This document shows positions 26,802 to 53,119 of a stretch of 64,000 nt of DNA, piece after piece. The DNA is from Leucoraja erinacea (taxonomy: Eukaryota): the NCBI RefSeq assembly GCF_028641065.1, contig NC_073420.1, forward strand, positions 434,001-498,000. Reading direction: 5' to 3'. A program made the translations under genes and the position numbers. Position 1 is the stretch's first letter. Every line of letters begins with the position of its first letter. Below the pieces are notes generated by a model. The model made no database searches. It saw only the letters and a list, made by a program, of their open reading frames with translations, and was not told the DNA's origin.

Positions 26802-26951
26802 CAATTATATCCGTCAGCTCCGAGTGAAAGTCGTCCCAGTATTTAATGAAGAGAAACAGAAGGATCATCTGCTCCTGGGTTTCAGCGTCTTCGGACCGAC
26901 CATCTTCCAGTACTGATGAAACAAGGTAACTGATATCTGGGTTGGCTAACC
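26802..26951 (-). CDS. TOP6BL: TOP6BL coding exon 10
   Basis: tag|(G)LANPDISYLVSSVLEDGRSEDAETQEQMILLFLFIKYWDDFHSELTDII-G|gtacta; human LVLPDVSYQVES...QTLLLFLFVDF. Confidence 0.92.
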
Positions 26952-28373
26952 CTATAACACAATGCAGAGATATAAAGTGCAATTGGCTTCTGAGATGTGC
27001 TTACCAATTTATATCATCCTGTAATGCAGATATTAGCTTTTAAGATGGGTATAGGAACCAGGAAGATTGTTCCCCATGTTGGGGAAGTCCAGAATAAGGG
27101 GTCACAGTTGAAGGATAAGGGGGAAGTCTTTTAGGTCCGAGATGAGAATTTTCTATTTCACACAGAGAGTGGTGGAATTCTCTGCCACAGAAAGTAGTTG
27201 AGGCCACAGTTCATTGGCTATATTTAAGAGGGAGTTAGATGTGGCCCTTGTGGCTAAAGGGATCAGGGGGTATGGAGAGAAGGCAGGTACAGGATACTGA
27301 GTTGGATGATCAGCCATGATCATATTGAATGGCGGTGCTGGCTCGAAGGGCCGAATGGCCTACTCCTGTATCTATTATCTATTGTCTATTGTTGAGTGAT
27401 GATCATTATTGTTAAATGGCACCAGCACATGCTGCTTTTCTTTATGTCTCTGCTGAATATTTGCTGAAAAGTCCGAGTGTCATTACATTTCATTCCAAAT
27501 TAGACCCCAGAGAAACTGTGGATGTGTTGGACATGATGCATGGGTCATTTTTTAAGGCTTCATATATTTCCTTTTGTAAATGCCCTTATTCACTGAGTAG
27601 GTGGCCTCTTTAAATGAAGCATGATTCAAGTCTCATTCCTGGGCTGTGCGGTCAGCTTATTTAAGCCAAATGGGGTGCAACGGAATTGACCTCCTGAGAG
27701 GAATAAAACGAAAGATCTGCTCTGCCAAGAGAGGGAACATGTGTCGGCCAGCTGTGTATACGATCACCTTGGGACGTAATGGCGCAAGAGTGAAATAATT
27801 TTTAAAATGAATTGTCAGCTTCTAATAGACGTATGGTCGTTTAAGCGAGAACGAGGTCACATCAAAGGGAAAAACTCCACAGGAGAAAAGGTTAATGTTC
27901 CCCGACAAACTAAGTTGAAGTTACATTTCCTCACATCCCTGGAGGAGTGCAAGAGAAACTGCTGGAAAGGAAGGTGCTGAAAAACAAACAAAAAGCCATG
28001 AATATCGAACTGTGTAGGAAGGAACAGCGGATGCTAGTTTAAGCTGAAGTGCTGGAGTAACTCAGCAGGACAGGCAGCACCTCTGGAGAGAAGGAATGGG
28101 TCAAGATCCTTCTTCCGACTGAGAGTCACCGGAAAATGGAAACGAGAGATATGGACGGTGATGTAGAGAGATAGAGAACAAATGAATGAAAGGTATGCAA
28201 TAAAATATAACGATGATAAAGGAAACAGGCCATTGTTAGCTGTTTGCTGGGTGAGAACAAGAAGCTGGTGCGCCTTGCGTGGAGGAAGGATGGAGAGAAA
28301 ATCTAACTACTAAACATTGCTATCGCTGATCATTGCTTACAACTGATGGTATGAGATTGGAATGAGCTTACCT

Positions 28374-29144
28374 TGCAGAAAAAATGTTCCCAACGTTGGG
28401 CGAGTCCAGAACCAGGGGCCACACACACAGTCTTAGAATAAAGGGGAGGTCATTTAAGACTGAGGTGAGAAAAAACTTTTTCACCCAGAGAGTTGTGAAT
28501 TGATGGAATTCCCTGCCACAGAGGGCAGTGGAGGCCAAGTCACTGGATGGATTTAAGAGAGAGTTAGATAGAGCTCTAGGGGCTAGTGGAGTCAAGGGAT
28601 ATGGGGAGAAGGCAGGCACGGGTTATTGATAGGGGACGATCAGCCATGATCACAATAACCATATAACCATATAACAATTACAGCACGGAAACAGGCCATC
28701 TCGACCCTTCTAGTCCGTGCCGAACACATAATCTCCCCTAGTCCCATATACCTGCGCTCAGACCATAACCCTCCATTCCCTTCCCATCCATATAACTATC
28801 CAATTTATTTTTAAATGATAAAAACGAACCTGCCTCCACCACCTTCACTGGAAGCTCATTCCACACAGCTACCACTCTCTGAGTAAAGAAGTTCCCCCTC
28901 ATGTTACCCCTAAACTTCAGTCCCTTAATTCTCATGTCATGTCCCCTTGTTTGAATCTTCCCTACTCTCAGTGGGAAAAGCTTTTCCACATCAACTCTGT
29001 CTATCCCTCTCATCATTTAAAAAACCTCTATCAAGTCCCCCCTTAACCTTCTGCGCTCCAAAGAATAAAGCCGTAAGCCAATGAATGGTGGTGCTGGCTC
29101 AAAGGGCCGAATGGCCTCCTCCTGCACCTATTTTCTGTGTTTCT
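28374..29144. mobile_element. CR1 (+) interrupted by an inverted CR1 of another subfamily (~28657-29068, -)
   Basis: The host 3' UTR breaks at ...gatcacaat and resumes at ...gaatggtggtgctggc. The inner copy encodes RGNFFTQRVVAVWNELP. Confidence 0.8.
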
Positions 29145-29545
29145 AATGAGGGCTCATCAAGCATCTTTATTACAGTATCACTAGTATTTGTGTTCATGCC
29201 CCAGTGCCTTAGTTGACTCAGAAAAGCCGGGAAAATGTGGACTTCTGGTCACTTTGCTTTTTGACATTAAATTGCACCTCAAATAGTTAAGCTTCATGGC
29301 ATCAATATAACCATAGTTCAATAACCACCAGAATACCCTTGGGCTATCCTTGATCGGACTTTGCCCGGCTTTACCTTGCACTAATGTACCTTGCAGTAAA
29401 CGTTATTCCCTTATCATGTATCTGCACACTGTAAATGGATCGATTGTAATCATGTATTGTCTTTCCGCTGAAGCACATGTGTCAATAAACTGAACCTGAA
29501 TAAACTAGACTTAGATAAACAAATAAGCAAACAAGGTAAACTTTC

Positions 29546-29693
29546 CTTCCACCATTGTCCGGTCAGTGTGTTGAGTCAGACACTGTTCATATTGCTTCCA
29601 GTCTGCCAGATGGGATGGATCCATAAAGAACGACAAGGAACATTTACCATCCTTGAATGATAAGGGCAGATCAGCGGGTCCATGTATAAATAT
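29546..29693 (-). CDS. TOP6BL: TOP6BL coding exon 9 (non-canonical splice sites on both sides)
   Basis: tccttaacttgacacat|IFIHGPADLPLSFKDGKCSLSFFMDPSHLADWKQYEQCLTQHTDRTMVE-G|gaaagt; human IFLYGPLGLPL...FFKDTSSLVDWKKYHLC. Confidence 0.88.
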
Positions 29694-29835
29694 ATGTGTC
29701 AAGTTAAGGAGTGCCATTCGGTTAAAGCAAATATCAACATTGCACGCACATACATCTCTCATTCTCATTCACCCGCAGAAACCTTAGTGGATCATTTGTC
29801 AAATAATCATTTTCCATTCATTATGTACCATTACG

Positions 29836-30490
29836 ACCTCGTTGAAACTTACCGAATAGTGAAAGGCCTGGATGGAGTGGATGTGGAGAGGATGTTTCCG
29901 CTGGTAGGAGAGTCTAGGACTAGAGGTCATAGCCTCAGAAGTAAAGGACGTCCCTTTAGGAAGGCGATGGGGAGGAATTACTTTAGTCAGAGGGTGGTGA
30001 ATGTGGAATGAATTGCCTCAGGCGGCTGTGGAGGCCGTCAATGGATGTTTTTAAGGCAGAGATAGCTAGATTCTTGATTAGTACCTCAAGGGGTCAGGGG
30101 TTATGGGGAGAAGGCAGGAGAATGGGGTTGAGAGGGAAAGATAGACCAGCCATGATTGAATGGCAGAGTATAATTGATGGGCCAAATGGTCTAATTCTGC
30201 TCCTCTCATTTATGAACTTATGAACTTATTACATATAGGCAGCACAGGCTGTAGACAATAGACAATAGACAATAGGTGCAGGAGTAGGCCATTCAGCCCC
30301 TCGAGCCAGCACCGCCATTCAACGTGATCATGGCTGATCATCCACAATCAGTACCCCGTTCCTGCCTTCTCCCCATATCCCTTGACTCCGCTATCTTTAA
30401 GAGCTCAGTCTAGCTCTCTCTTGAAAGCATCCAGAGAACCGGCCTCCACCGCCTCTGAGGCAGAGAATTCCACAGACTCACAACTCTCAG
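29836..30490. mobile_element. Two CR1 fragments, tail-to-tail, inside the TOP6BL U12 intron
   Basis: DLVETYRIVKGLD...RTRGH on the plus strand and a (ctattgt)n-tailed copy on the minus strand. Confidence 0.8.
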
Positions 30491-30961
30491 TTTGAAAATA
30501 AACGCGATTATCGCCAAAAATATAAAAGGAGGAAAAAAAAGGGGTAGGGTAGGCCTTAAAGCTTGCTCGGCCATTCAATAATATGGTGTCTGAGGCTGAG
30601 TCTAAACAGGATAACAGTCCATTTAGTAGGGATCTGGACAGTCAGAGTAAGCAATGAGTCACTTGATAGAAATATCAGGCCATTCTTCCTCGGGAAAGCA
30701 GTTCAAACGCAAGATTAGCAAACTCGTTTGAGTAAAGCCAACCTCTGTATATTCAAGAAGAAATAAAAACAGGAATTCCCCTCTCAATGCCAAGGCAAAA
30801 CTTAATTCTTGATGGCATCCATCCCTACAGTCTAAAGATATTGTAACATTTGGTGGACATTATACACCAGTAAATAAAAGTGCAACGGGAACACACGTTA
30901 CAGAGAAAACCAGCTCCCATTTACGTCCACATAAACTGTACACTCTTTTCCTAAAGGATAC

Positions 30962-31157
30962 AGAGACGTTGGATATTCTAGCAGGTTTGTTAGGGTAGTT
31001 CTTCAGGCACGGACAGATTGCAGCTATTGGTAATATCTCCAGCAATCCGCAGACTCCGGCTTCTGCGAGTTGTTTGGGAACGGACAAAGGGAACGACTTT
31101 CCAGCAACGGGGTGGAGTTTGCAGCATTGTGGATGAGTTGCACTTTCATCATCTCTT
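30962..31157 (-). CDS. TOP6BL: TOP6BL coding exon 8 (tandem acceptor 31157/31154; U12-type donor)
   Basis: RDDESATHPQCCKLHPVAGKSFPLSVPKQLAEAGVCGLLEILPIAAICPCLKNYPNKPARISNVS|gtatccttt; human ...RIHPVLG...PAAALCP...NRISSVS. Confidence 0.9.
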
Positions 31158-43764: not shown

Positions 43765-46700
43765 CTCTCTCTGTCTCTGTGTGTTTGTCTCTTTCTTTCT
43801 GTGTTTGTCACTTCCTGTCTTTCTCTGTCACTGTGTCTGTCTGTGTTTATGCGTGTGTCTCTCGCTCTCTGTCTGTGTCCGTCTCTCTCACTGTGTATGT
43901 CTGTGTACCTCTCTCGCTGTTACTATCTGTGTGTGTGTCTCTCTCTGTCACTTTCACCCTCTCTGTCACTCTGTCTGTCACCCTCTATCTCTCTCTGTCT
44001 CTCTCTTTCTGCCCCTCTCTCTCTCTGTCTATCTCTCTGTCTCTCTATCACTCTCACTCTCTGTCACTGTCTATCTCTCTACCACTCGCTACCTCTCAAT
44101 CTCTGTCTATCTCTCTCTCTCTCTCTATATATCTCTCTTTCTCTACCTCTTTTTTNNNNNNNNNNNNNNNNNNNNNNNNNNNNNNNNNNNNNNNNNNNNN
44201 NNNNNNNNNNNNNNNNNNNNNNNNNNNNNNNNNNNNNNNNNNNNNNNNNNNNNNNNNNNNNNNNNNNNNNNNNNNNNNNNNNNNNNNNNNNNNNNNNNNN
44301 NNNNNNNNNNNNNNNNNNNNNNNNNNNNNNNNNNNNNNNNNNNNNNNNNNNNNNNNNNNNNNNNNNNNNNNNNNNNNNNNNNNNNNNNNNATCTCTCTCT
44401 ATATATATCTATCTCTCTCTCTCTATATCTATCTCTCTATCTCTATCACTCTCTCTGTCTATATATANNNNNNNNNNNNNNNNNNNNNNNNNNNNNNNNN
44501 NNNNNNNNNNNNNNNNNNNNNNNNNNNNNNNNNNNNNNNNNNNNNNNNNNNNNNNNNNNNNNNNNNNNNNNNNNNNNNNNNNNNNNNNNNNNNNNNNNNN
44601 NNNNNNNNNNNNNNNNNNNNNNNNNNNNNNNNNNNNNNNNNNNNNNNNNNNNNNNNNNNNNNNNNNNNNNNNNNNNNNNNNNNNNNNNNNNNNNNNNNNN
44701 NNNNNNNNNNNNNNNNNNNNNNNNNNNNNNNNNNNNNNNNNNNNNNNNNNNNNNNNNNNNNNNNNNNNNNNNNNNNNNNNNNNNNNNNNNNNNNNNNNNN
44801 NNNNNNNNNNNNNNNNNNNNNNNNNNNNNNNNNNNNNNNNNNNNNNNNNNNNNNNNNNNNNNNNNNNNNNNNNNNNNNNNNNNNNNNNNNNNNNNNNNNN
44901 NNNTCTGTCACTCTGTCTCTCTCTCTCTCACACTCTCTCTCTCTCTCTCTCTGTCACATTCTATATTTCTCTTTCTATCTCTTTCTCTCTCTCTATCTCT
45001 CTGTCACACTNNNNNNNNNNNNNNNNNNNNNNNNNNNNNNNNNNNNNNNNNNNNNNNNNNNNNNNNNNNNNNNNNNNNNNNNNNNNNNNNNNNNNNNNNN
45101 NNNNNNNNNNNNNNNNNNNNNNNNNNNNNNNNNNNNNNNNNNNNNNNNNNNNNNNNNNNNNNNNNNNNNNNNNNNNNNNNNNNNNNNNNNNNNNNTCTCT
45201 CTCTGTGTCACACTCTCTCTCTCTCTCTGTCACACTCTATATTTCTATTTCTCTCTCTTATCTCTCTCTCTCTCTCTGTCACACTCTATATTTCTATTTC
45301 TATCTCTATCTCTCTCTATCTCTCTGTTTCACACTCTATATTTCTCTCTATCTCTCTCTGTCTCTCTCTATATTCCTCTNNNNNNNNNNNNNNNNNNNNN
45401 NNNNNNNNNNNNNNNNNNNNNNNNNNNNNNNNNNNNNNNNNNNNNNNNNNNNNNNNNNNNNNNNNNNNNNNNNNNNNNNNNNNNNNNNNNNNNNNNNNNN
45501 NNNNNNNNNNNNNNNNNNNNNNNNNNNNNNNNNNNNNNNNNCTCTCTCTCTGTCACTCTCTATCTCTCCAGGCGCCACCAACGGCATTTCAAATTTTTTC
45601 ACGCGTAACTCTAAATTTTTCCTTTCCCCTCGGCTCTTCTCTCTCGCATCCTCCTCTCCCAGTTTCCCTCCCTCCTTTCCTCTCTCCCTCGCCTCCCCCT
45701 CTCTTCCTTTCCCTTCTCCTTCCCGTCCCTTCCCTCTCTCCCCTCCCCCCTCCTCTCCTCCTCTTTATACCCTCTCTCTCCTCCCCTTCTCTCCCTTTCC
45801 CCTCTCTCTCCTTCTCCCTCTCTCTTCCCCCCTCTCCCTCTCTCCCCTCTTCCTCCCTTCAGGTCTCTCTCTCTCTCCTCTCCCCCTCTCTCCCTCTCCC
45901 TTCTCGTCTCTCCCCCTCTCTCCTCCTCCGTCGTCTTCCTCGTCTCCCCTCTCCTCTCTCCTCTCTCCTCTCCTCTCTCCTCTCTCCCTCCCCTCTCTCC
46001 CTTCTCTCCTCCTCTCGGTCCTCCCTTTCCTCTCCCTCTTTCTTTTTCCCCTCTCCCCTCCCTCTCTCCTTTCCCCCCCCCTCCTCTTTGCCTCCTCTTT
46101 CTTTCTCTCTCTTCTCCTCTCCTCTCCCCTTATTTCTCCTCTCACTCTCTCTTTCTCTCTCTTCTCCTCCTCTCTTCTCTTCCTCTCTTTTCTCTTCTCT
46201 CCCCCTTTATCTCTTACTCCTCTCCTCCCCACCCTCGATTTTCTTCTCTCTCTCCTCCTTCCCCTCTCCCCCTCCCTCTCTCCTCACTCCTCCCNNNNNN
46301 NNNNNNNNNNNNNNNNNNNNNNNNNNNNNNNNNNNNNNNNNNNNNNNNNNNNNNNNNNNNNNNNNNNNNNNNNNNNNNNNNNNNNNNNNNNNNNNNNNNN
46401 NNNNNNNNNNNNNNNNNNNNNNNNNNNNNNNNNNNNNNNNNNNNNNNNNNNTTCCCCTCCTCTTTCCCCTCTCTTCTCCTCTCCCTCTCTCTCCTCTCCT
46501 CTCTCTCTTCTCTCCTCTCCTTTCCTCTTCCCTCCCTCCCCTCCTTCTCTCCCTCCTCTCCCTTTCTCCTCTCTCTCCTTTCCTCCTCATTCCTCCCTCC
46601 TCTCCTCTCCTCTCCCTCTCCTCCTCTCCCCCCTCTCCCCCTCTCCTCTTCTCTCTCCCCTCGTTTCTCCCTTTCCCTCCCCTCCTTCCCCTCTCCTCTC

Positions 46701-49700
46701 TCCCCTCTCCCTCCTCTCCTCTCTCTCCTCTCTTTCTCTCCTCTCCTCTCCTCTTCCCCTCCTCCTTCCTTTCCCCCTTTCCCTCTCTCCTCCTCTCGCC
46801 NNNNNNNNNNNNNNNNNNNNNNNNNNNNNNNNNNNNNNNNNNNNNNNNNNNNNNNNNNNNNNNNNNNNNNNNNNNNNNNNNNNNNNNNNNNNNNNNNNNN
46901 NNNNNNNNNNNNNNNNNNNNNNNNNNNNNNNNNNNNNNNNNNNNNNNNTCTTTCCCCTTCCTCTCCCCTCTCTCCCTCCCCCTCAGCTCCTCTCGTTCTC
47001 CTCTCCGTAATACTCCCTCTCTTCCCTTTTCTCCTCTCATCCGCCCCCCCTCCTCCTCCCTCTCTCTCTCAGTCTCCTCCCTCTCTCTCTCTCCTCTCCC
47101 CTCCCTCTCCTCTCCCCTCTCCTCTTCCTTTCCCTCTCTTTCCCTCCCCTCTCTCTCCTCCCCCTCTCCTCTCCTCCCTTCTCCTCTCCCCTCCTCCCTC
47201 TCTCCCCTCTCCCCCTCTCTTCCTCTCCCTCTCCTCTCCCCCTCTTCTCCTTCCCTCTCTCCCTCTCCCCTCCTCTCCTCTCCCCTCTCTTATCTTCCCC
47301 CCCCTCTCTCTCCCTTCCCCCTCCTCTCTCTCTTCTCCCTCCTCCTCTCCCCCCTCTTCTCTCCCTCTCTCTCTATCCTTTCTCTCCCCCCCCCCTCCCT
47401 CTCCCTCTCCTCTCCCTCCGCTCTCCTTCTGTTCTCCTCTCCTCTCCCCTCCCCCCTGCCTCCTCCCCCCTCTCCTCCCCTCTCTCTTCCCCTCTCCTCC
47501 CCTCTCTCTCTCTCCTCTCCACCTCCCCTCTCTCCATCTCTCTCCCTTTCTTCCTTTCCTCTCCTCTCTCTCTCCCCTCTTCCTCCTCCCCCTCTCCTCG
47601 TCCTTCTAGTCCCCTCCCTCCCTCTCTCTCTCCTCCCTCTCTCTCCCCCTCCTCTCCTCCCTCCCCTCCCCTCTCCTCTCCCCTCCCTTCCTCCCCCCTC
47701 TCCCTCCTCTCCCCTCCTCCCTCCTCCTCTCCCCTCTCCTCCTCTCTCCTCTCCCCTCCCTTCTCTCTCCTCCCCTCTCTCCCCTCCTCCTTTTCCTCTC
47801 TCTCTCCCCTCCTCCCCCTCCCCTCTTTCCCTCTCTCCCTCTCCTTCCTTTCCTCTCCCCCCTTCCCTCCTCCTTCTCATCTCTCCTCTCTCCCTCCCCC
47901 TCTCTCTTTCCCCCTCTCCCTCCCTCCTTTGCCCCTCTCTCTCTCCCTTTCTCTCCTCCCCTCCCCTCTCCTCCCCCTTCCTTCTCTGCCCCCTCCCCTT
48001 CTTCCTCCCTCTCTCTCTCCTCTCCTCCCTTCCTCTCCCTCTCTCTCTGCCTCCTCCTTCTCTCCCTCTAGTCCCTCCCTCCCTCTCTTCTCCCCTCTCG
48101 TCTCCCCCTCTCTTTCTCTCCTGCTTCCTCTTCCCTTCGCCTTCCCTCTCCCCCCTTCCTCCTCTCCTCCCCCATCTCCCCTCTCCCCCTCCTCCCCCTT
48201 CTCTCTCCTTTCTCTCTCTCCCTCCCTCCCTTTCCCTCCCTCTCTCATCCCCTCCCTCTCTCCTCTCCCTCTTCCCTCCCTCTCATCCCCTCCCCTTTCT
48301 CTCTCTGCCTCCTCTCTCTCCTACCTTCCCATCTCTCCCTCCCCCATCTCTCTCTTTCCCCCCTCCCCCTCAGTCCCTGGTTCCTCTCCCTCTCCCCCCC
48401 TCCCCCTCTCCTCCCCTCTCCCTCTCCTTCCTCCCTCTCTTCTCCCTCCCTCTCCCTTCCCTCCTCTCCTCTAGTTCCTTTTCTCTCCTCTCTCTCCCTT
48501 TCTCACCTCTCTTCTCCTCCCCTCTAGATCACTCTCCCCCTCCCTCTCTCTCCCCCGCCTTCCTCTCTCTCCATATCTCCTTCTCCCTCTTCTTTCCCCT
48601 CCTCTCCTCTCCTCCTCCTCCATCTCTCTCGCTGTCCCATCCCTACCTCTCCTCCCTCTCTCATCTCCCCCCTCCCCCTCTACCTCATCTCCCTCCCTTC
48701 CTCTCTCCTCTTCCCAATCCCCTTCCCTCCCCTCTCCTCCCTCTCCCTCTCCCCTTTTCTTCCGGTCTTCTCTCCTCTCTCTCTCCCTCCCTCCCTCCTC
48801 CTCTCTCCTCCTCCCTCCACCCTCGCCTTTTCCCCCATCATCCTCTCCCTCTCCCCTCCCCCCCCTCCCCCTCCTCCCTCTCTCTCCCTCCTCCTCTCTC
48901 CCCTCTCCTGTCTCCCCTCTCCCTCTCCTTCGCCTCCCTCTCCCTCTCCCCTCCCCTCTCTTCTCCCTCTCCCCCTTCCCTCTCTCCCCTCTCCCCTCTC
49001 TCCTTCCCTCTCTTCTCTCTCCTTTCCTCTCTGTCCTCTTCTCGTCTCCCCTCTCTTCTCTCCCTCCCCTCCCCTCCTCCCTCTCTCCCCGCTTCCCCCT
49101 CTCTCCCTCCTCCCCCTCCCTCCCCCTCACCTCTCTCCCTTCCTCTCTCTCTTTCCTCTCCTCCCTCTTCTCTCCTCTCTCCTCTCCCCCTCTCTCCCTT
49201 CTTCCCCTCTCTTCCCCCCTCCCCTCCCCCTCTCCTCTCTTCCTCCCCCTCTTCTATTCCTCCTCTACATCTCCCTCTTTCTCCTGCCCTCCTCCCTCTC
49301 TCCCCTTCCCTTCTCTCCTCCCCTCCCCTCCTCCCTTCCTCCCTTCTCCCCTCCCCTTCCCTCCCCTCTTTCCTCTTCCCTCCTCCATTCCTCTCATTTC
49401 TTCGTCTATTCTCTCTCTGTCTCCTCCCTTTCCCCCTCCCCTCGATCCACGTCCCTCCCTCTTTCCCTTTTCCCCCATCCTGTCCCTGGTCCTCTCCTCT
49501 CCCCTCCCCTCTCCCTCTTATTATCTCCCCTCTCCTCCTCTTCCTCTCTCTCCTCTCCTCCCTGCCTCCGCCCTCTGACTTTCTCCCCTCTCCCTCTCCT
49601 TTCCTTCCTCCTCTCCCTTCTCTCTCTCTCTCCCTCTCCTTACTCCCTCCGCCCCCCTCCTCTTCTGCCTCCTGTTCCCTCTCTCTCCCTCTCCCCTCCC

Positions 49701-51400
49701 CCTTTCCCTCTCCCCCTCTTCCTTTCTTTCTGCTCTCCTCTCCCCCTTTCCCTCCTTTTCTCTTCTCTCTCCCCCCTTTCCCTCCCTTTTCGCTCCCTTC
49801 CTCCCTCTCCTCTCTCCCTCCCTCCTCTTCCTCCCTCTCTTCTCTCTCTCTCTCAGGTCTTTTCCTCTCCCCCTCCTTCCTCTTCTCCCTCTGCCTCTCT
49901 CTTCCCCCTCTTTCCTCTCCTCTCCCCTCACCCCTCCTATTCTCTCCTCTCTCCTCTCTCCCTCGGCCCCCCTCCCTCTCCCCTCCTCTCTCCCCTCTCC
50001 TCCTCCCTCTGCTCTCTCCCTCGCTCCTCCTCCCTCGCTCCCTGCGTTTCCTTTCTCTCCTCCTCCTCTTCTCCCCTCTTCCTCTCCTCTCCTCCCTCCA
50101 CATCCTCCTCTCTCCCTCCGTCTCTCTTGCCTCTTCTCTCCTTATTCCCCCCTTCCCCTCCCTCTCCTCTCGCCCCTCCCTCCCCTCCTCCTCCCTCCCC
50201 CTCCCGGCCCCTCTCCTCTCCTCTGCCTTCCCCATCCCCCCTCTTCATCTATCTCTTTCTCCCTCTCCTGGCTCGCAGCAGGCTCTCCTCTCTCTCCCCT
50301 TCCCTCCCCTCCTCTCATAATCCTCTCAGTTCCGGCCTCTTTCCCTCCTCTCTCTCCTCCTTCTCCCCTCTCTTCTTCGCCTCCCTCTCCCCCTCTCCTC
50401 CTCTCCCTCTCCCTCCTTCTCCTCATTCCTCTCCCCCTCTCCTCCATACTTTCTACATGTCCTGTTCTCTCCCCCTCTCATCTTCATTCTCTCCCCTCAA
50501 TTCTGTCTCTTCCCCCCTCCCTCCTTCCTCCCTTTCCCTCTCCTCTCCCCCTCCTCTCTCTTTATATCTCCTCCCCCTCCTCTCTCTCTCCCTCTCTCTC
50601 CCCCCCTTTCACTCCTCTCTCCTTTTCCTCCCCTCCTTTCCCTTTCTCCCTCTCCTTCCCCCCCCATTCCTCCTCTCTTCCCTCGGCCTCCTCCCTATCC
50701 TCTCTCTCCCCTCACCCTCCCCACCTATCTCCCTCTCTCCCCTCTCTCGCCCTCTTCCTCCTGCCCTCCTGGTCCTCCATCCTCCCCCCTTCCTTCTCTC
50801 CCCCTTTCCCTCCTCTCTCCTCGTCCTCTTCCCCCCCTCTCTCCTCCCTCTCCCTCCCCTTCCCCCTCTTCTCTCCCTCTCCTCCTCTCACCTCTCCTCC
50901 CATATTCTCCCCTGATATCTCCTCCCCCTCCCTCTCTCCCCCTCCCCTCCCCTCTCCTCTCCTCCTCTCCGCTTCTCTCTCTCCCTCTTCTCCCTCTCCC
51001 CTTTCTCTCCTCCTCTCCTCTCCTCCTCCTCCTCCTCTCTCTCTCCTATCTCTCCGAGTCCTTCCTCCTCTCCTCCCCCTCTCCTCTCCCTCTCTTCTCC
51101 TCCCCCCTCCCCCTCTTGTCTCTCCCCTCTCCCTTCCCTCCCCTTTCTCCTTCTCTTTCTCCCCTCCTCTCTCTCCCCTCCTCCATCCTCATTCTCCTCC
51201 CCTCGTCCCCTCTTCCTCCCTTTCCTCTCCCTTTGCCTCTCCCTCCATTTAAAGAAAATCTTCCCCGCTCGCCCCTTCCCCCTTCTCTCTCCTCTCCTCT
51301 CTCCCCCCTCTCTCTCTCTTCTCTATCTAGCGCTCTCTCCCCATAGATGGGTTTTCTTTGGATTATTAGCTCGGGGTTCCTCTCTCTCTTTCTCTCTCCC
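43765..51400. repeat. ~7.6 kb CT-rich (homopyrimidine) low-complexity tract with several N gaps
   Basis: Almost only C and T on the plus strand; source of the giant S/L/P-rich and R/G/E-rich ORFs. Confidence 0.95.
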
Positions 51401-53119
51401 CACACATGTATTCATTGCATTATTAACACTCAGATAACACTAACTCTGGGTTGCTCTCTCCACAGGTGTGTTTCTTCCATTATAATGGCTTTCAGATTCA
51501 CACAAATCGACAATCCTTACCACATTCTAATAAGACACTCTCTCTCAGTGGGCTGAAGGGCCTGTTTCCACATTGTATCTCTAAACTAAACTAAATTATT
51601 TAAAATCCGTGTCCTGCATCCTTGAACTGTCAGCCACACCAGGTTTTCTCTAATGACCCCCTCTGAGCTGATCATTATCTTGTGCATCATCTCCATTAAA
51701 TCTCCTTTCAAATGTTATCTGCCAAGGAGAGCAATCCCAGTTTAATCGTTTAGCTAATGTCCGTCGCCACTGAAAATCATATTAGAGACTCATTTACGCG
51801 GAGTTGGACATGGTTTCCACCTGTTCCAGAAACCTGTTTAATGTTATATCAACCGCTCTGACACCAATAATGTCCTGTGGCTTTTCACAATTTGGGAGAA
51901 CATTCATACAATTTGCAGCATATATCCATGTCATCTGGTTGGGAACATACAAAAGCCATGCTGGACCAGAGTTTTATGGATTGTTAGATAATAACCAATG
52001 TTCATTAGTTTTACATTTAACAGTACAGTGCCCTATCATCAGCAGTACTTTTAAGTGGTGGCGCTGCCATGCAGCTGCGGCTCGCCTGCAGTCCGTCTGT
52101 CTTTTCCTTTTTTGGTGTTTTCTTTTGCCCTGTTGGACGTATGTTTTAGTTTATTTTTAGTTGTGTGTGTGTGGGGGGGTGGGGGTAACTTGTTTTTAGT
52201 CGCTTCCTTCGGGGGGGGGGGGGGGGGGTGCGACCCTTTTCTTTGTTGTATGTTTGTTGTATCTTTGTTTGTTGCTGCCAGAGGGTAGTTGAGGCCAGTT
52301 CATTGGCTATATTTAAGAGGGAGTTAGATGTGGCCCTTGTGGCTAAGGGGATCAGGGGGTATGGAGAGAAGGCAGGTACGGGATACTGAGTTGGATGATC
52401 AGCCATGATCATATTGAATGGCGGTGCAGGTTCGAAGGGCCGAATGGCCTACTCCTGCACCTAATTTCTATGTTTCTATGTATCTCAGTCTGCGCTGAGG
52501 CCTAATCACGGAGCTGGTGGCCCCCAACTGGGACCGACCTCGAGGCTCCAGAGGCAGCGCCAGGACACACCATCGCGAAGCTGGCCGACTTTAGGGCTGA
52601 GGTGGCGCTACCGGAGCCTCGGAGGCTTCAGTGGACGACAACATCGGGAGCTCACAGGTCCCAGGTTGGTGACCGATTCACCGGAGCTCCCGCAACAACA
52701 GCTTTGTCCGCTGGACTGGAGGGTGGCAGCTTCGTCCGCCCTGGGCCGCGGAGTTTGAACCGGCCCGTTCGCGGAGCTCGGATTCGGCCGCGGGACTTAC
52801 CATCACCCGGCGGGGGCCCAACATTGAAAGCCTGGATCGCTTCAATGCAGAGGGAGAACAAGGAAGGAAGAAATAAGGACTTTAAGACTCTTGCCTTCCA
52901 TCACAGTGAGGATGTGACTGGTAGACTCACTGTGGTGAATGTTAAACTGTGTTCATTGTGTGTTCTGTTATTTTATTCTCTGTCATGACTACAATAAAGG
53001 AAACATACTTTATATTGCTGACAATTGTTAATAGAGAGGCCTGCTTTCTAGCAAAAACATTCTTGCCACTGGAATTCTGTCCATTCCTGTTTTACTCTTC
53101 ACATAGACAGGTGGCAGGT

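Follow-up and report, generated by a model that had tools for sequence, protein, structure and literature searches.

A probable GA-AG intron in the TOP6BL gene of the skate Leucoraja erinacea and its relatives

This analysis leads to the proposal, held at a probability of roughly three in four, that in the skate Leucoraja erinacea and its relatives a germline TOP6BL intron of 2594 bases that starts with GA is removed by the major spliceosome, joining position 29546 to position 26951 and yielding a full-length TOP6BL. (Positions are those of the window, that is, of the whole 64,000-nucleotide stretch of DNA analysed here.) The GA itself, its presence in other organisms, its near-consensus context, and a join that restores conserved protein spacing with codons present in the genome are all directly seen. 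GT is the near-universal start of introns, and the TOP6BL intron is probably a further case of a known, rare GA-AG class; what is new is the combination of a GA donor that appears to be obligatory with, ahead of the same exon, an intron resembling the U12 GT-AT type. TOP6BL is a single-copy gene that helps start meiotic recombination through the formation of DNA breaks. The GA intron provides a small, naturally occurring minigene in which to learn if a GA donor depends on a helper GT or on a U-rich enhancer, and how exon definition works with a U12 acceptor on one side and a non-GT donor on the other. It would also account for the two partial models into which most shark and ray annotations divide TOP6BL, and which work on meiosis genes can mistake for gene fission or loss.

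The gene lies on the minus strand, its 27.4 kb running from about 41105 to 13837 (Table 1). The exons on either side of the GA intron match consecutive positions (131-176 and 185-224) of the DUF4554/PF15091 profile, and genome-wide the PF15091 family is matched once and the exon 9 DNA is present as a single copy. Membership in TOP6BL/TOPOVIBL is borne out by the PF15091 family, the W-K-x-Y motif and a TopoVI-B-like fold, the last taken from the model of the catshark orthologue. A paper on TOPOVIBL evolution places the W-K-x-Y motif with the transducer region (PMC9665070); the portions of its main text drawn on here mention neither Chondrichthyes nor Callorhinchus. Two RefSeq proteins of L. erinacea match exons in the window, the N-terminal one at 92-100% per exon with differences at exon edges. 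A one-base frame break occurs at about 14670-14664 on the minus strand, inside a late exon (about 14846-14514), and may be either an assembly indel or a real change and sign of a damaged copy. The C-terminal W-L-Q-E motif is still encoded at 13887-13835 but is lost from the predicted protein through this break, and the RefSeq half-model ends early, without the motif. Upstream of the gene, window positions 44000-52000 hold a strongly strand-skewed low-complexity tract with several stretches of N.

Table 1. Positions of the features discussed, in window coordinates except for the last row; a solidus marks a splice boundary.
Feature	Position	Strand	Remarks
TOP6BL exon 8	30962..31154	-	phase 0 end at ...N-V-S; start at 31154 inferred; PF15091 match
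U12-type-like intron upstream of exon 9	29694..30961	-	U12 motifs; predicted GT-AT
TOP6BL exon 9	29546..29693	-	148 nt, phase 0 to phase 1; has W-K-x-Y motif
GA donor	29540..29549	-	GAAG/GAAAGT; first intron base 29545
U-rich stretch after donor hexamer	29511..29540	-	first 30 intron bases past the hexamer
Predicted GA-AG intron	26952..29545	-	2594 nt, mostly interspersed repeats; U2-type acceptor
TOP6BL exon 10	26802..26951	-	150 nt, phase 1 to phase 1
Rival phase-1 GT	29580..29581	-	4/11 U1 matches; use would remove 12 residues; AT in organism G
In-exon GT of Val codon	29551..29552	-	7 nt upstream of GA donor; immediate stop if joined to 26951
Skate FGFR exons	L032:1501-1518, L034:1501-1518, L036:1501-1518 (C1, C15, C35)		end in Val-Thr codons, then GAAAGT

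Exon 10 opens as tag/GG TTA at 26951 and thus requires a phase-1 donor; read from 29693 to 29546, exon 9 ends in that phase. An earlier note on this DNA had argued that the sequence at this very point departs from the donor consensus at +2 only, and this is what the minus strand gives at 29549-29540, with G at 29545 and A at 29544. The site matches the U1 complement at 8 of 11 bases; the gene's 12 ordinary donors, every one of them GT, match at 5-9. Given the exon end, the chance of finding G[ACG]AAGT as the next six bases is about 0.001 under a first-order Markov model of the gene, within whose 27.4 kb AGGAAAGT is present 3 times. At the other end of the intron, the acceptor at 26952 (tag) follows sequence with a pyrimidine fraction of 0.65-0.68, as for a U2-type intron. 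There is no U12 branch motif TCCTTAAC near the exon 10 acceptor, and neither an RTATCCTT donor nor a TCCTTAAC branch site within the GA intron, both being confined, on the window's minus strand, to the upstream intron. Bases +6 to +35 of the GA intron have a T fraction of 0.57, the highest of 14 donors (others 0.20-0.50). Three further features of the site were set aside. A hairpin holding the donor in its loop and the upstream GT in its stem is no better than shuffled sequence (z +1.24; 183 of 200 shuffles fold as well); A-to-I editing at the donor was rejected by reasoning, the product being GG-like and not GT or GC; and an 11-base word common to the start of the intron and to exon 10, where the encoded residues vary among sharks, was treated as chance.

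The position of the join is constrained by protein spacing. Among 123 aligned homologues, 53 have W and Y/F anchors flanking the junction, and in 39 of these the W...Y block is 27 residues long (the other 14 span 13 to 47). Splicing at the GA produces a block of 27 residues, with 18 residues between W-K-x-Y and P-D. The protein of the catshark Scyliorhinus canicula (XP_038643297) reads V-E-G/L-A, its junction falling in the same codon as the predicted join; in the catshark itself the donor may be a GT or a GC. A model of this protein, with pLDDT mostly 80-98 over residues 11-330, places the junction in a loop flanked by strands 175-179 and 194-200, within the part that aligns to topoisomerase VI-B (Z 8.4, rmsd 4.1, 194 aligned); the ten best structural matches are all TopoVI-B, with Z of 7.2-8.4. 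Foldseek returned nothing for the catshark model at E 0.001 or better (best E 1.3e-3), and sequence searches found no TOP6BL among solved structures. The read-through half-protein of the sawshark, folded from a 7-sequence alignment, reached a pLDDT of 33, too low to be informative.

An improbable alternative is that the GA goes unused and that either a weak canonical donor (GT at 29581, 29583, 29552 or 29541) or an unseen micro-exon is spliced. Pairs of GT or GC donors and AG acceptors that keep the frame open do exist, as became apparent when 21 donors (20 GT/GC and the GA) were joined to every AG in 27100-26860; these nearby sites, however, match U1 at 3-5 of 11 positions as against 8 for the GA. 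All but one of the alternative pairs alter the spacing, and that one (29583 to 26989; 3/11 U1 matches), the sole canonical pair of equal length, swaps 13 residues that align to shark exon sequence for intron sequence. From 29620 to the in-frame stop near 29511 the sole phase-1 GT is 29581; those at 29583, 29541, 29532 and 29520 are in phase 2 and that at 29552 in phase 0, which agrees with the earlier note's statement that the remaining nearby GTs are in the wrong phase. That note had also dismissed 29581 as weak and as cutting a conserved Cys: it is indeed weak, and it is AT in organism G (one of the coded organisms described below), but the residue is C, H, Y and Y in the four shark and ray proteins that cover the site, and Tyr in organism G. 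The GT at 29552 is the nearest upstream, only 7 nt away, and the Val codon that holds it is kept in all four of these proteins as well as in the window; against its use, it is out of frame, matches U1 at 3 of 11 positions and runs at once into a stop when joined to 26951, and the catshark protein retains V-E-G followed by L-A. Under the preferred reading, then, the GA donor would be obligatory because no nearby GT or GC can replace it.

The other side of exon 9 is likewise unusual. The upstream intron has a donor GTATCCTT at 30961 and a branch-site motif TCCTTAAC at 29710-29703, and a GTATCCTT-type donor and TCCTTAAC are each unique on the window's minus strand. These U12 motifs, together with the S/I junction in the catshark and beaver proteins (P0005, P0007), predict that the intron ends in AT at 29694 and hence that it is of the U12 GT-AT type; the earlier note's description of exon 9 as non-canonical on both sides thus holds for the sequence. 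For organisms D and G, no difference is listed at the branch motif or at the final AT. At the upstream junction, V-Y-[IV] appears in three shark and ray models, which would fit a junction shifted by two bases; shark models either read through this U12-like intron or shift it by two bases. With its U12 donor and branch motifs and its predicted AT end it resembles known U12 GT-AT introns, of which 4 are listed for human and 3 for mouse (PMC1557818, Table 2); mouse Top6bl is named among minor-intron genes in the cited part of PMC12956336.

Gene models of other sharks and rays bear on how widely the unusual donor is shared. Twelve such species appeared among the homologue searches, and S. canicula alone has a joined model, the remaining 11 having none that links exon 9 to exon 10. 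In the sawshark, S. torazame and the electric ray Narcine, the N-terminal model passes the upstream intron, includes exon 9, continues as E-G-K into the GA intron and stops 10-14 residues later, and a second, separate model begins just before exon 10. Models of the skate and of Chiloscyllium plagiosum break off at the upstream intron and resume within exon 10; for Rhincodon, Stegostoma, Heterodontus, Heptranchias, C. punctatum and Hemitrygon only C-terminal models, without exon 9, were returned; and a GenBank model of S. torazame skips exon 9. Exon 9 is in none of the returned C-terminal halves, which begin at unrelated points. Because a plain AG/GTAAGT is easy for gene finders, these failures suggest a non-GT donor at exon 9 throughout sharks and rays, and the GA state is probably common to both, a view that outside skates derives from the models. 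E-G-K in the read-through models fits a GT as well as a GA, and the upstream U12 intron may lie behind some of the split models. A paddlefish model (P0053) also begins just before exon 10; being cut at the same place, it implies that split models are specific neither to the GA donor nor to sharks, and the intron may be hard to annotate beyond sharks too. A sturgeon fragment (P0083) ends soon after E-G; the homologue searches returned no chimaera protein by name.

Taken at face value, these models would mean a genuinely divided gene in sharks and rays, with one transcript that runs from upstream into the intron, where it ends in a short hydrophobic tail, and another that begins near exon 10. 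This would account for the 11 of 12 species without a joined model and for a read-through tail that, relative to the skate, is alike in the electric ray (9/10 residues) and the sawshark (7/10). It is nevertheless very unlikely: the S. canicula model is joined, the tail of S. torazame differs (3/10), the C-terminal models share no starting point, and the cut would part strands of a single predicted TopoVI-B-like fold. The divergent tail of S. torazame fits conservation of bases, not of a peptide. Per 30 bases of the skate intron, the tail has at least 2 changes in Narcine, at least 4 in the sawshark and, aligned without gaps, 11 in S. torazame; for comparison, the last 30 exon bases have 4 changes in Narcine and 2 in the sawshark, and the bamboo shark has 7 per 30 after the U12 donor. 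As judged from the read-through models, the U-rich stretch appears unusually similar in the electric ray and the sawshark.

It is just as hard to believe that the GA abolishes splicing and became fixed in skates alone, in a TOP6BL that is damaged or decaying. Such a history would fit the one-base frame break in a later exon of the assembly, and the GA has been read directly only in close relatives. Yet a single locus was found in the genome, the other exons align to homologues without internal stops, the 12 other donors are GT, and in shark models, too, it is at this intron that annotation fails. Nor is a dead single copy likely, since mice that lose only C-terminal residues have sterile females, as reported in the part of the preprint used here (bioRxiv 10.1101/2021.11.30.470517).

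The A at 29544 is germline, shared with relatives, and no assembly error. A search of read runs over 29500-29760 covered 24 runs from eight coded organisms, none of them on record as RNA. Organisms D (X9, depth 25) and G (X18, depth 23) each gave one contig running from 29511 across the donor, with no difference listed at 29559-29541; within 29560-29782, 7 of 10 differences are listed for D and 9 of 11 for G. Unlisted differences are expected near the ends of aligned pieces, and 29544 sits 34-35 bases from such an end; in a wider read alignment, differences 31-32 bases from an end were listed. For organism C (X5), 5 of 7 differences are listed and none is at the donor, so that C, too, probably has no difference at 29544. 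That the A is an assembly error or a variant private to the sequenced animal, as the earlier note had allowed, is hardly credible: a possible indel error does lie 15 kb away, but D and G agree with the window at the site, and 23 words sampled from 29500-29760 are present at a fraction of 0.96 in the best DNA run, possibly the assembly's own source. Near the donor the related organisms show only about 3-4 substitutions per 100 relative to the window, and in relatives this close an unchanged A excludes an error but does not demonstrate selection. In D and G, about 14 extra bases relative to the window (loose ends) occur at 29511-29510, just past the U-rich stretch. One run considered as possible RNA (X20) behaves like low-depth DNA, its contig ending 3 bases past the donor, and a metagenome scan found no relative among its 244 pattern matches. 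Two single-cell RNA runs of organism A, of which about 1 and 3 in 100 were sampled, gave 0 reads on 29506-29825. The GA-AG intron offered as one option in the earlier note gains indirect support from homologue spacing, the catshark junction and the split gene models, and its spliced junction is a prediction.

Mechanistically, normal U1 would pair with 8 of the 11 bases around the mismatch at +2, as at GC and known GA donors, and the major (U2-type) spliceosome would then splice 29546 to 26951. Introns can carry U-rich enhancers of a kind bound by TIA-1. The U-rich stretch just downstream of the donor may help to recruit U1, conceivably as a TIA-1-type enhancer at +6 to +35 (a guess by analogy), and the GT 7 nt upstream could act as a helper or as a competitor. 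A compensating U1 was sought among the skate's U1 matches: of 42 matches the 5' ends were examined in 30, and none of the 29 readable ones has a T at position 7, which would pair with the A at +2; one weak copy has a C there. The skate genome holds at least 13 near-full-score U1 snRNA matches, with several sequence types after the 5' end. A more ambitious proposal, which must be called doubtful, is that an obligatory GA has been kept since the ancestor of sharks and rays, on an exon defined by U12 and U1 with neither end normal, together with a conserved U-rich enhancer and a competing out-of-frame GT 7 nt upstream that diverts some of the transcript to decay, the whole forming a splicing bottleneck; if true, such a bottleneck would limit the DNA-break-forming complex outside meiosis.

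Known GA-AG introns offer several points of comparison. One is that of ITPR1, likewise a U2-type GA-AG intron in a coding region misplaced by annotation tools, and found also in the consulted part of the TOGA2 preprint (10.64898/2026.06.30.735536). Unlike the predicted TOP6BL junction, that of ITPR1 was confirmed by RT-PCR, and the labels GA-AG[2210] and GT-AG[12] in the corresponding figure give a dominant GA donor a precedent (PMC4176328, in the parts seen); only in TOP6BL does the same exon also have a predicted U12 acceptor ending in AT. Intron 12 of SYMRK in Trema orientalis is GA-AG, about 95% spliced and a local allele derived from GC, according to the relevant section of PMC10668435; it is a single required GA donor in an otherwise ordinary gene, as that of TOP6BL appears to be, but the TOP6BL GA is common to several species, perhaps to sharks and rays. 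Eurytemora affinis and Oikopleura dioica have thousands of GA donors, for which a U1 variant was proposed (PMC7072748, as excerpted); they share the AG/GA-A donor context with TOP6BL, whose GA site, by contrast, stands alone among the donors of its gene, without a compensating base in any of the 29 readable U1 5' ends. A U12-type GA-AG intron is described for zebrafish actr10 in the passage cited from PMC2831892. The literature searched, outside which most subscription journals lie, yielded no report of a non-canonical donor in TOP6BL or of a U12 GT-AT intron and a GA donor on one exon, and C11orf80 was not found in the searched portion of the PMC4176328 supplements, which included 30 of 62 GA-AG rows.

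The GA-AG introns of the FGFR genes were reportedly described by Twigg (1998) and Brackenridge (2003). FGFR1-3, like ITPR1, have established U2-type GA-AG introns, and in FGFR the GA donors serve as alternative sites, reliant on a GT in frame 6 nt upstream (PMC4176328, in the parts seen); as far as the consulted parts of the cited papers go, vertebrate cases are mostly of this alternative kind. FGFR1-3 and TOP6BL have in common a GA donor in a U2-type context and an AG acceptor. The TOP6BL donor, however, lacks an in-frame GT 6 nt upstream, its nearest upstream GT being 7 nt away, weak and out of frame, and its GA appears to be obligatory, unlike those of FGFR. An FGFR-type pattern matched the skate genome 5 times, against 0 for a reversed control. 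Two of the five matches were rejected as lying outside open frames; the other three, followed by the GAAAGT also seen after TOP6BL exon 9 and so a precedent for it within the skate genome, are FGFR juxtamembrane exons (Table 1), which a PDB search identified and a Pfam search did not. The FGFR pair of GT and GA donors thus appears, from these sequences, to be present in a cartilaginous fish.
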